Shown: positions 59,082 through 62,001 of the stretch, in pieces
How positions within the stretch are numbered: the first letter of the stretch is position 1
Layout: each line of letters starts with the position of its first letter
Source: Reclinomonas americana ATCC 50394
Lineage: Eukaryota
DNA length: 64,000 nucleotides
NCBI GenBank assembly: GCA_048213135.1
Contig: PS015009.1
Coordinates: forward strand, 1,364,001-1,428,000
Reading direction: 5' to 3'
The notes under the pieces: generated by a model
The model's database searches: none
Told to the model about the DNA's origin: nothing
The model's input: the letters and a program-made list of their open reading frames with translations, nothing else
Program-made: the position numbers and the translations under genes

Positions 59082-60206
59082 ATGGCCAGCATCTTCCGGA
59101 AACTGACGAAAAAATTCTTCATCATCAGCAACCTGGTGGTGTCGGTGCTTTTCCTGCTGGGCTGCTATGCTTATTATTTCAACCCGCAACACTGGTGGTT
59201 CCTTGGGTTACTTACGCTGGGTGCTTTTTACCTGTTGCTGTTATTGCTGCTGTTCCTGTTTTTCTGGTTGTTTGTAAAACCGGGCTGGACGCTCATCTCC
59301 CTGTTGACTATTGCCCTGGCTTACCGCCCGGTAACACAGATGCTGCCCTTGCGCTTTTCAGCAAGTTTTGAAAAGAAGAAAAGCCGCGACGCACTCCGTG
59401 TTATGACCTGGAACGTAGAGCACTTTGATATACTCGAACACAAAACACATCCCGAGACCAAGGAAAAAATGCTGAACCTGGTAACGGAATACCAGCCCGA
59501 TGTTGCCTGCTTCCAGGAAATGGTAGGCGGCGATAAGAGCCCAGCGGCCATTAACTATGTGCCCGATATGGCTCCCCGCCTCGATTTTACCGGGTACTTT
59601 TATTCCTACAATCCCAAACTGGATTTTGACGGCGATCACCACTTCGGTCTCATCACATTTTCGAGGTACCCCATCATCAATAAACAAACGGTGAGTTATT
59701 ATCCCCACGACTATAACTCTATTTTCCAGTATACTGATATTGTAAAAGGAAGCGATACCATAAGGGTGTTCAATATTCACCTGCAATCGCTTAAGTTCAG
59801 TGCCGATAACCTGCAGTACATTGATAAGCCCAGCGTGGGCGAGGAGGGCGATATGCAAAAATCGAAAAACGTGCTGGTGAAACTGAAAAGGGGATTCCTG
59901 AAACGGCAGGTGCAGGCCGACCGGATAAGGGAAGCCATTGACCAGAGCCCTTACCCGGTGGTGGTTTGCGGCGACTTTAATGATGTGCCCAACAGTTATG
60001 CCTACCATACCATTGGCAAGGGATTGAAAAACGCGTTTGCCGAAAGCGGCATCGGCCTTGACCGTACATTCAGCGGCATCAGCCCTACCCTGCGGATAGA
60101 TAATATTTTTACCTCCGGCCGGTTCTCCATACAGCAATACACCCGGGTGAATAAAAGACTGAGTGATCACTTCCCGGTTTTCGCGGATGTGCAATTGAAA
60201 AAGTGA
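59082..60206 (+). CDS. endonuclease/exonuclease/phosphatase family membrane protein
   Basis: N-terminal TMs; MTWNV, CFQE, HLQS, GDFNDVP, RIDNI, SDHFPV. Confidence 0.9.
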   Translation: MASIFRKLTKKFFIISNLVVSVLFLLGCYAYYFNPQHWWFLGLLTLGAFYLLLLLLLFLFFWLFVKPGWTLISLLTIALAYRPVTQMLPLRFSASFEKKKSRDALRVMTWNVEHFDILEHKTHPETKEKMLNLVTEYQPDVACFQEMVGGDKSPAAINYVPDMAPRLDFTGYFYSYNPKLDFDGDHHFGLITFSRYPIINKQTVSYYPHDYNSIFQYTDIVKGSDTIRVFNIHLQSLKFSADNLQYIDKPSVGEEGDMQKSKNVLVKLKRGFLKRQVQADRIREAIDQSPYPVVVCGDFNDVPNSYAYHTIGKGLKNAFAESGIGLDRTFSGISPTLRIDNIFTSGRFSIQQYTRVNKRLSDHFPVFADVQLKK

Positions 60207-60306
60207 TAAGTATAAAGTAGCAAGACACTCCTTTTTTAACTCGTTACCCTTTATACACGCTACCTGCTACCCCACTTTCAAAAAAAAGAATATCTTTACC
60301 GCCTCA

Positions 60307-60360
60307 ATGAACAACAGCTACACATACCGGTTTCTTTGTTGCCCTTGCGGCATATGCTGA
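60307..60360 (+). CDS. putative cysS leader peptide MNNSYTYRFLCCPCGIC
   Basis: 17-aa ORF with 4 Cys in last 7 codons, 153 nt upstream of cysS; TATCTTTA at 60291-60298; hairpin and T-tract at 60377-60397. Confidence 0.7.
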   Translation: MNNSYTYRFLCCPCGIC

Positions 60361-60513
60361 TATTTTCCATCCCCGAAAGCCTGATAGGCTTATTTTTACA
60401 AACGATTTTACGGTGATAGTCCTGCCCAATAAGGAGATGAAGCACAAGAGTGCGACGCCACAGAAGCTACAGCGCAGTACTACAGCCCGGATCATAAAAA
60501 ACCAAAACCTACC

Positions 60514-62001
60514 ATGTCATTAAAAGTATATAACAGTTACAGCCGCGTCAAGGAAGAGTTTACGCCCATTACGCCTGGCCATGTGGGCATGTATGTGTGC
60601 GGCCCCACGGTAAGCGGCGAAAGCCACCTGGGTCATGCCCGCCCATACATCACCTTTGATTATGTGTACCGCTACCTCACCTACCTGGGGTATAAAGTGC
60701 GCTATGTACGCAATATTACCGATGCCGGGCACTTTGAGGAAGAAGGCCGTGAGGCGGAAGATAAAATCTCTAAAAAAGCGGTGCTGGAAAGACTGGAACC
60801 AATGGAGCTGGTGCAGAAATATACTAACCTGTACCATTGGGCCATGCTGCAGTTCAATTGCGTGGAACCCAGTATTGAGCCCACCGCAACGGGACATATT
60901 GTGGAACAGATCAACATGATCGAGAAGATCATATCGGAAGGGTATGCCTACGAAGTGAATGGTTCCGTATATTTTGATGTAAAAAAATATGCCGCCGGCC
61001 ATGATTATGGCAAACTGAGCGGCAGGGTGATCGACGACCTGCTGGAGACCACGCGTGAGCTGGACGGGCAGGAAGAGAAACGCGACAGGGCCGATTTCGC
61101 CCTGTGGAAGAATGCCGCACCGGAACACATTATGCGCTGGAAAAGTCCGTGGGGCGAGGGTTTCCCGGGATGGCACATCGAGTGCTCGGCCATGGCGACC
61201 AAGTACCTGGGCGCTGAATTTGATATTCACGGCGGTGGTATGGACTTGCAGTTCCCGCATCACGAAAGCGAGATTGCCCAGAGTACCATCTGCAATCATT
61301 CCGCACCGGTACGCTACTGGATGCACAACAATATGATCACCATCAACGGTAAGAAGATGGGCAAGAGTTACAACAACGTGATCAAGCTGACAGAAATGTT
61401 CAGCGGTACGCATCACCTGCTCACGCAACCCTTTCATCCCATGGTGATCCGTTTCTTCATTTTGCAAAGTCATTACCGCAGCCCGGTCGACTTCAGCAGC
61501 GAAGCACTGGAAGCGAGTGAAAAAGCATTGAAGCGTTTGTGGGAAGCGTATGAGCATTTGCAAAAACTGCCTGCCGGTACCAACGCAGAAGCTTCGGACA
61601 AAGAACTGGATGAAAAAGTGAACAAATGGATAGCGGAGTTTGATGAGTTTATGGATGATGACTTCAGCACGGCGAAAGTGCTGGCCAATATGTTTGAACT
61701 GGCGCCGGTGATCAACTCCCTGAAAGACGGGCTGATACCTGCTGACAGCCTTTCCGCCTCCACGCTGGACCTGCTGAAAAAGCAAATGAAAGCCTTCCTG
61801 GAAGATATTTTCGGACTGAAGAGCATGACGGAAAACAGCAGTAAGTTCAATGAAGTGATGCAATTGCTGATCGACATCCGCAAGGAAGCGAAGACCAAAA
61901 GGGACTTTGCCACTTCCGACAAGATCAGGAACCAGCTGTCGGAACTGGGTATACAGCTGAAGGATGAGAAAGGGGGAGAGATGAGTTGGAAAATAGATTA
62001 A
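60514..62001 (+). CDS. cysS: cysteine--tRNA ligase
   Basis: [39 protein letters not shown]. Confidence 0.98.

Follow-up and report, generated by a model that had tools for sequence, protein, structure and literature searches.

Is the short, cysteine-rich open reading frame (ORF) that lies directly ahead of cysS in this stretch of DNA a regulatory leader, and if so, how could it act on the gene? The question was raised by a sequence-only reading of the window, i.e., the whole stretch of 64,000 nucleotides analyzed here (contig PS015009.1 of assembly GCA_048213135.1, deposited under Reclinomonas americana ATCC 50394; positions 1,364,001 to 1,428,000 of the forward strand). This reading described a Bacteroidota-like -7 promoter box, a 17-codon ORF, a short hairpin followed by ATTTTT, and the start of cysS, the gene of cysteine--tRNA ligase; every one of these coordinates was correct. 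Four Cys codons near the 3' end of the ORF were also found, occupying positions 60337-60342, 60346-60348, and 60355-60357, i.e., four of the last seven codons. The leader of the gene thus contains a short ORF enriched in cognate codons (four Cys in 17 codons before cysS). Ribosome stalling on these codons at low Cys-tRNA was proposed to permit read-through of the hairpin into cysS. A leader peptide whose Cys codons sense Cys-tRNA for cysS is supported by the conserved ORFs described below, whereas terminator read-through as its output is not; the hairpin is weak and predicted to form regardless of the ribosome. For our best explanation as a whole, a Cys-tRNA-sensing leader ORF that raises the amount of full-length cysS mRNA, we estimate a probability of about 0.75.

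Nine further short Cys-rich ATG frames occur within the 64-kb window. The window alone gives little, and it is the comparison across relatives that puts its ORF above chance. The main sample comprised the best 80 of 551 confirmed cysS matches in species-representative genomes, with CysS identities of 70-84%. These loci, designated below by L numbers, belong nearly all to Chitinophagaceae or Chitinophagales, and those closest to the window are metagenome-assembled genomes of Ferruginibacter. An ORF was counted if it started with ATG, had at most 45 codons with at least three Cys among the last ten, and lay within 250 nt upstream of cysS. Such Cys-run ORFs were found in 25 of the 80 loci; under the same criterion, the controls yielded 1/80 on the opposite strand, 2/346 upstream of other long ORFs, and 14/1479 in random windows. 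Short Cys-rich ORFs 5' of cysS, for which the sequence-only reading had suggested looking across Chitinophagaceae, are thus present there at 25/80 against approximately 1% in controls. Three consecutive Cys occurred in 20/80 cysS loci and in 0/80, 0/346, and 2/1479 of the same controls, respectively. Judging from this comparison of sequences, the 17-codon ORF of the window is a real, conserved, and unannotated leader ORF and not a chance frame.

Examples of leader peptides among the 80 loci are MKKYFYTCCCSCCC, MNHSYTYCCCCC, and MFFLSHTCCCCCCC. Forms with two Cys but the same layout and promoter geometry were found in L003, L013, and L034, and a CCC-stop frame without ATG in L074. Among the carriers is one with a recorded strain name, Sediminibacterium roseum SYL130 (L058). 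A second sample consisted of independent metagenome contigs; 5 of its 80 loci, with less than 150 nt of upstream sequence, were left out. Sixteen of the 75 loci examined were flagged and 13 were clear, after the removal of L206, L221, and L279 as two-Cys or long ORFs far upstream. The total number of distinct leader peptides collected was 45.

In five whole Chitinophagaceae genomes, the pattern of four Cys codons plus stop gave 30 matches, most of them in longer frames or without ATG, versus two matches for the reversed pattern. The combination of this pattern with a -7-like box 4-8 nt 5' of the ATG, assessed by eye in the 25 nt upstream, was present at only two sites in the five genomes, both of them cysS sites. 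A wider Cys regulon in these genomes was considered and rejected: the box-plus-ATG geometry was confined to cysS sites, with one PhyH candidate besides. This candidate (L103:1400-2408; genome G005, Chitinophaga sp.) is a 26-codon ORF ending in CCCCC, located 89 nt before a gene of a PhyH-family dioxygenase. It is followed by a pyrimidine-rich spacer and a stretch, GCAACAAC, whose sequence is complementary to that of the Cys codons. With about 33 nt between its -7 box and the ATG, this ORF is not leaderless.

The distribution of the trait was analyzed on a FastTree phylogeny of 80 CysS proteins, with L022 left out due to its CysS frame of less than 440 aa. The 29 carriers imply 17 changes on this tree, versus 23.9 +/- 2.0 in label shuffles, none of 300 being as low; at least 12 of the 17 changes are forced by well-supported branches. 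The carriers cluster on the CysS tree, and the ORF trait is therefore inherited within clades. The ORF is carried by 7 of 8 rows of the Sediminibacterium clade and by all five members of the clade of L005, L008, L013, L017, and L018. L007, the sister locus of the window, was scored as a non-carrier with only 106 nt of upstream sequence. From these counts, the leader ORF appears to head the cysS messenger in roughly one third of Chitinophagaceae.

A sample of the phylum comprised 121 genomes, all with CysS, of which 90 were examined for upstream DNA. The carriers L113, L114, L115, and L117 all have at least 73% CysS identity (L117 is the same locus as L058). One distant carrier, L137, a member of Bacteroidota with 52% CysS identity and an AT-rich genome, encodes MIKFKKVSDKIFVTTIICCCCTCCC, an ORF of 25 codons with seven Cys (...IICCCCTCCC) located 66 nt before cysS; it is the sole case among 81 examined genomes below 62% CysS identity. 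Poly-Cys ORFs were found in 0/60 genomes with 46-53% CysS identity, and three frames with scattered Cys there look like noise. The mini-ORFs MFCCSIG (L128) and MVCCSIG (L132), approximately 120-145 nt before cysS, were not counted, being found in two genomes only. Both are enclosed by a 14-bp hairpin that has a T-run and immediately follows an upstream gene, which we take to be folE from its C-terminal residues; this hairpin is probably the terminator of the upstream gene rather than a leader.

The leader ORFs have a median length of 15 codons (range 12-33) and a median of four Cys (range 2-7). In 22/32 of them, the stop codon follows directly after the last Cys, usually as the end of a C-terminal run of 3-7 Cys codons, and at least seven codons precede the first Cys pair in all 45 peptides listed. 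The Cys run is the only feature common to the 45 peptides; besides it, His/Tyr-Thr immediately N-terminal to the run recurs often. His-Thr stands directly before the first Cys pair in 8/45 peptides and Tyr-Thr in two; in L005, L013, L064, and L236, His-Thr is found 1-5 residues further upstream. This motif is often encoded by CATAC and might reflect either a nascent-chain effect or a signal at the RNA level. In the leader ORFs of 32 loci, Cys is encoded 80 times by TGT and 58 times by TGC; the corresponding numbers for the cysS genes of these loci are 22 and 94. This bias may indicate that the sensor prefers the wobble-read codon or that the intergenic base composition shows through. The forms closest to that of the window are CCPCGIA (L001), CCCLCGIA (L201), and CCLCGRQ (L035). 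A block, TGTTGCCYTTGCGGCA, was kept in the window, L001 (84% CysS identity), L201, and L035, with a single difference, located in the hairpin loop.

A -7-like box ends 4-8 nt 5' of the ATG of the leader ORF in 27/32 loci, whereas among all ATGs of these loci, 525 of 22,639 (2.3%) have such a box. The distance between box and ATG was 4 nt (three loci), 5 nt (seven), 6 nt (five), 7 nt (11), and 8 nt (one, the window). In the transcriptome of Flavobacterium psychrophilum, the -7 box was placed at -12 to -5 (PMC9723704); with the spacing of 4-8 nt, transcription would therefore start 0-4 nt before the ATG. On this promoter geometry, the leader ORFs are probably leaderless or nearly so, with at most about 4 nt of leader. 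Short leaders are rare in two transcriptome papers (one of them PMC9723704), with 5.5% of leaderless starts and approximately 3.7% of leaders under 10 nt.

A strict TAnnTTTG was also found between the leader ORF and cysS in 12/26 loci (L001, L002, L005, L008, L017, L021, L035, L064, L065, L071, L072, and L078). By eye, a TAYTTTTA block 3' of the ORF was present in the window, where it occupies 60391-60398, as well as in L001, L201, and L035. This post-ORF box may be a second cysS promoter bypassing the sensor or a part of the U-tract. As a separate observation, the ATG of cysS itself is preceded at 4-8 nt by a -7-like box in 7/52 loci without the ORF (L032, L036, L055, L059, L060, L073, and L079), and therefore cysS would be leaderless there. 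A sigma-70 promoter scan of the window was set aside, because this promoter type is irrelevant to Bacteroidota.

RNA data were available from two runs of one study that are recorded as metatranscriptomes, from a strain about 95% identical to the window. The contigs of both runs begin at 60315, i.e., 8 nt into the ORF and 12 nt 3' of the predicted start, and extend across the spacer into cysS; a 5' end cannot be read from contigs. They end at 61100 (the limit of the compared stretch) in one run and at 60779 in the other. Their agreement with a start at the promoter box P1 (Table 1) and with RNA continuing past the hairpin is less than a weak hint. One run, which is probably DNA, spans the whole stretch and was not used as RNA evidence; another run, whose RNA nature is a guess, was likewise set aside.

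Table 1. Features of the cysS leader region in the window (positions counted from the first nucleotide of the window)
Feature	Position	Strand	Remarks
Upstream gene, endonuclease/exonuclease/phosphatase (EEP)-family protein	59082-60206		
-7 promoter box TATCTTTA (P1)	60291-60298	+	Read from sequence; 8 nt 5' of leader-ORF ATG
Predicted transcription start for P1	~60303	+	Inferred from box position
Leader ORF MNNSYTYRFLCCPCGIC, 17 codons + stop	60307-60360	+	Stop codon 60358-60360
Hairpin inside leader ORF, UGUUGC-CCUU-GCGGCA	60337-60352	+	Predicted; formed by the Cys codons themselves
Hairpin AAGCCT-GAT-AGGCTT (60377-60391), then ATTTTT	60377-60397	+	6 pairs, 3 G-C; -5.4 kcal/mol
Second -7-like box TATTTTTA (possible P2)	60391-60398	+	Overlaps T-run of the 60377-60397 hairpin
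Untranslated spacer, leader ORF to cysS	60361-60513	+	153 nt
Conserved block in distal leader	60440-60500 (limits approximate)	+	nhmmer matches in relatives
cysS, cysteine--tRNA ligase, putatively regulated gene	60514-62001	+	TIGR00435, 453.8 bits (cut-off 340)

An EEP-family gene apparently precedes the locus in many relatives, whose upstream flanks contain a conserved C-terminal coding sequence. An Rfam scan of 59900-60800 with E-values up to 10 revealed no T-box and no other family, in line with the remark of the sequence-only reading that no T-box is visible; the sole matches were two microRNA models (E 4.9 and 9.6). As a whole, the cysS leader of the window has no unusual structure (z +0.40). 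Other leaderless ORFs with amino-acid runs were sought in the window, and none of the 17 candidates was convincing. A 36-codon alternative frame with a Cys-rich end (...TCCCYCCCSCFSGCL) is located inside the upstream gene (59167-59277, + strand); it is taken for a chance frame within coding sequence. The distal block was common to L007, L005, L010, L020, L206, and L212 (nhmmer E 1e-14 to 6e-9), with weak matches in L075 and L068, and occurs both with and without the leader ORF; RNAalifold found no consensus pairs in it.

Tandem Cys codons are predicted to lie inside a stem 5' of cysS both in the window, in the hairpin within the ORF, and in relatives, over the last Cys codons and the stop. In typical relatives, the last Cys codons pair with bases just 3' of the stop, which is located in or near the loop, as in GCUG-UUAAUU-CAGC and GUUGCUGA-UUUUU-UCAGCAAC. 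A stop-spanning stem of at least 4 bp was present in the predicted optimum of 37/44 loci, counted without L078 (a near-copy of L072) and L117. With shuffled downstream sequence, 27.1 such stems are expected (simulated P 0.00025, relatedness ignored), and a control with the sequence 30 nt further on gave 15/34. The energy z-score of the stop-spanning hairpins averages -1.2 to -1.3. In the window, the hairpin 60337-60352 has a predicted energy of -5.4 kcal/mol; its predicted probability is 0.58 in free RNA and falls to 0 once a ribosome occupies any of the Cys codons. The spacers following the ORF measured 49-153 nt across 26 loci and are poor in G (12%) and rich in pyrimidines (C+T 61%), compared with 16-18.5% G and 51-52% C+T upstream of ORF-less cysS and other genes.

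We consider it very probable that the leader ORF is a cis-acting sensor of Cys-tRNA, by analogy with known leaders and because the ORF is tied to cysS and conserves nothing in its coding sequence but the cognate codons; its translation, the stalling, and the regulation would proceed as follows. Transcription from P1 would start a few bases before the ATG, so that the ORF is read from the extreme 5' end of the messenger. When charged tRNA-Cys is scarce, the ribosome would stall on the Cys codons, cover the first ~40 nt of the transcript, and keep the Cys-codon hairpin open, which in most relatives is formed with the post-stop bases and in the window is that at 60337-60352. Stalling would lead to more full-length cysS mRNA: the stalled ribosome may shield the G-poor, pyrimidine-rich spacer from premature termination of the Rho type or the 5' end from decay. 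Such control of elongation or stability is the output that we prefer, at slightly less than even odds, because the alternatives fail and because it is compatible with a leaderless ORF, a Cys run reached early, and a short, G-poor, pyrimidine-rich spacer. An output of some other kind has an appreciable chance, classical intrinsic attenuation is unlikely, and translational unmasking is improbable. We think that a switch between terminator and antiterminator is less likely than protection from Rho or decay and that occlusion of the cysS start is less likely still. It is a tentative proposal that a stalled 5'-terminal poly-Cys ORF raises cysS with neither a terminator switch nor unmasking of the ribosome-binding site and that the stop-spanning hairpin is a new functional part.

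Classical ribosome-mediated attenuation, in which the hairpin 60377-60391 with ATTTTT would terminate transcription unless a ribosome stalls on the Cys codons, is the least improbable of the alternatives, and we regard it as distinctly unlikely. The hairpin and the T-run do exist there, and the cysS motif of Rhodobacterales was described with a terminator (PMC8632094). Terminator-like sites are somewhat more common in ORF leaders (9/26) than in ORF-less loci (9/55), reverse complements (1/26), or shuffles (171/1040), and fair terminators built on the Cys codons were found in a few relatives (L030, L231, and L238). However, this enrichment over a background of 16% is weak, and a canonical terminator 3' of the leader ORF is not a conserved feature of the family; the T content 3' of the stop-spanning hairpins is near the background (4.97 versus 4.47 per 12 nt). 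In the window, the terminator had already been called weak by the sequence-only reading; its stem is at the chance level (one terminator-like site versus 0.7 +/- 0.8 in shuffles). It starts 17 nt 3' of the stop, beyond the assumed ribosome footprint (to about 60371), and forms with a predicted P of 0.93-0.94 in all five ribosome states folded (ribosome absent, on Cys codons, or at the stop). Folding across these states revealed no ribosome-position-dependent antiterminator in the window, and the same reading had seen no clear one. The proposed read-through on stalling is not supported, given the weak stem, its formation whatever the ribosome position, and the slight enrichment of terminators in the family. 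Moreover, the T-run reads as a -7-like box, with a similar block in L001, L201, and L035, and many loci show P1 as the sole promoter-like box before cysS; because cysS is presumably essential, a strong default terminator is unlikely in these loci. The unbroken coverage of 60315-61100 by RNA-library contigs also argues, weakly, against termination.

In mycobacterial-type translational attenuation, the free Cys tract would hide the cysS start region, and the stalled ribosome would free it. The architecture is the same, a leaderless ORF with a C-terminal poly-Cys run, and in L002, L030, L056, and L080, the Cys tract is predicted to pair with the cysS start region (share 0.44-0.74). Over 26 loci, however, the predicted pairing of the Cys tract amounts to 0.35 inside the ORF, 0.47 within 30 nt after the stop, and 0.11 with the cysS start region; the last share is 0.01 in the window. 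The predicted unpaired probability of the start region changes on stalling from 0.61 to 0.64 (26 loci) and from 0.80 to 0.86 in the window. The accessibility is thus practically unchanged, and unmasking of the cysS translation start was rejected. Bacteroidota initiate translation without Shine-Dalgarno (SD) pairing, and there is therefore no SD sequence for the Cys tract to hide. This alternative is highly improbable.

There is very little room for the possibility that the window ORF has lost its function and is decaying or that it arose by chance at a promoter. In favor of this, the Cys run of the ORF is interrupted and the stop-spanning hairpin is absent; the trait is often lost in relatives, and the sister locus L007 is unscorable with its 106 nt. 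On the other hand, L001, L201, and L035 retain both the TGTTGCCYTTGCGGCA block and the frame, and the window has an undisturbed promoter-to-ATG geometry. The least probable alternative, a small Cys-rich peptide that has an independent function (e.g., metal binding, redox, or as a modified-peptide precursor) and merely adjoins cysS, could account for His-Thr or Tyr-Thr before the Cys run and for possible separate cysS promoters after the ORF in some loci, but the peptides share sequence only in the Cys run and vary from 12 to 33 codons, the association is specific to cysS (the flanking genes checked being those of the EEP-family protein and cysS), and the Cys codons are TGT-biased, unlike those of coding genes.

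Several points weigh against a Cys-tRNA-sensing leader ORF that raises full-length cysS mRNA. The leader ORF is missing from 51/80 related loci (about two thirds), and it is therefore dispensable and often lost or gained. The window is an atypical copy, with other residues between its Cys (CCPCGIC), no hairpin across the stop (z +1.74), and a spacer that is long (153 nt) and only mildly G-poor (C/G 1.4). The second box, present in 12/26 loci and perhaps in the window, implies that part of the cysS expression may bypass the sensor. For the stop-spanning hairpin, a partner-swap control was marginal (-6.41 versus -5.80 kcal/mol; values as low were obtained in 203 of 5000 permutations), this control being unclean because all tails are (UGY)n. 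The RNA contigs come from one study and are unable to show a 5' end or a single transcript. Finally, control of elongation or stability is drawn from composition and from the failure of the alternatives, and it leaves the role of the hairpin unexplained.

The classical leaders of this general kind are trpL, hisL, and pheL (before pheST) of Proteobacteria, with SD-led ORFs, a set of 1:2, 2:3, and 3:4 hairpins, and a strong terminator. Like the present locus, they have a short ORF rich in cognate codons ahead of the controlled gene, with the ribosome position as the signal; neither the defined hairpin set nor the strong terminator was found here.

Closer counterparts are described in other phyla. 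In Deinococcus deserti, a 10-codon ORF with two Cys starts at the mapped transcription start of cysS, and a leader peptide was proposed (PMC4007540, 2014). As in our locus, a Cys mini-ORF at the transcription start is followed by an untranslated stretch and then by cysS. The differences are in the phylum and promoter type, in the number of Cys (two versus runs of up to seven here), and in the SD sequence of the D. deserti cysS; its transcription start was mapped by differential RNA sequencing, whereas here it is predicted, and the function is a proposal in both cases. In Rhodobacterales, uORFC-8-2 is a tandem-Cys upstream ORF located in a stem, exclusively upstream of cysS, and was interpreted as ribosome-mediated Cys-tRNA sensing (Brewer et al. 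2021, PMC8632094). Tandem Cys codons within a stem upstream of cysS are common to both systems. As described, uORFC-8-2 has two prominent stems and a U-run terminator, whereas the terminator is not conserved here, a comparison made by description only; also unlike uORFC-8-2, the Cys run here is C-terminal and the ORF leaderless.

Mycobacterial leaderless small ORFs (Ms5788A and others) have up to eight Cys codons at their 3' end; this tract masks the SD sequence of the next gene, and the response to cysteine was shown by mutation (Canestrari et al., bioRxiv 10.1101/834739). They resemble our family in the leaderless start, the C-terminal Cys run, and approximately 100 nt of untranslated RNA before the regulated gene. 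Their Cys tract pairs with the SD region, whereas the pairing predicted here is local and the access to the cysS start unchanged. The mycobacterial ORFs are longer (90 nt), their targets are cysteine-metabolic operons, and the available text of that preprint does not contain the term "cysS".

The transcriptome paper on F. psychrophilum mentions structured 5' untranslated regions of aminoacyl-tRNA synthetase genes (PMC9723704). An ORF of the present type before cysS in Bacteroidota was not found in full-text literature searches, supplements being outside the search; this agrees with the earlier statement that none was described in Bacteroidota, and sensors of this kind have been published for other phyla. 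What is new here is the phylum and the layout, in which a -7 box is followed by a leaderless ORF with its Cys run at the C-terminus and its stop codon within a hairpin. In no paper found was this layout, with neither a clear terminator nor an SD sequence, described, while the kind of sensor is known.

The control of aminoacyl-tRNA synthetase genes is well worked out for Firmicutes, with their T-boxes, and for a few proteobacterial genes. To our knowledge, little of it is known for Bacteroidota, a phylum that departs from the textbook in both promoters and translation initiation. With about 45 variants from nature, the present family would give access to a very small sensor, which consists of a -7 box, a leaderless ORF with a Cys run, and a stop codon enclosed by a hairpin. 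It would offer a tractable case for how ribosome stalling becomes gene expression with neither an SD sequence nor a clear terminator, and it brings to light a putatively functional, unannotated ORF missed by gene callers. If this explanation is true, further Bacteroidota genes related to sulfur, such as that of the PhyH locus, may be controlled by the same device.

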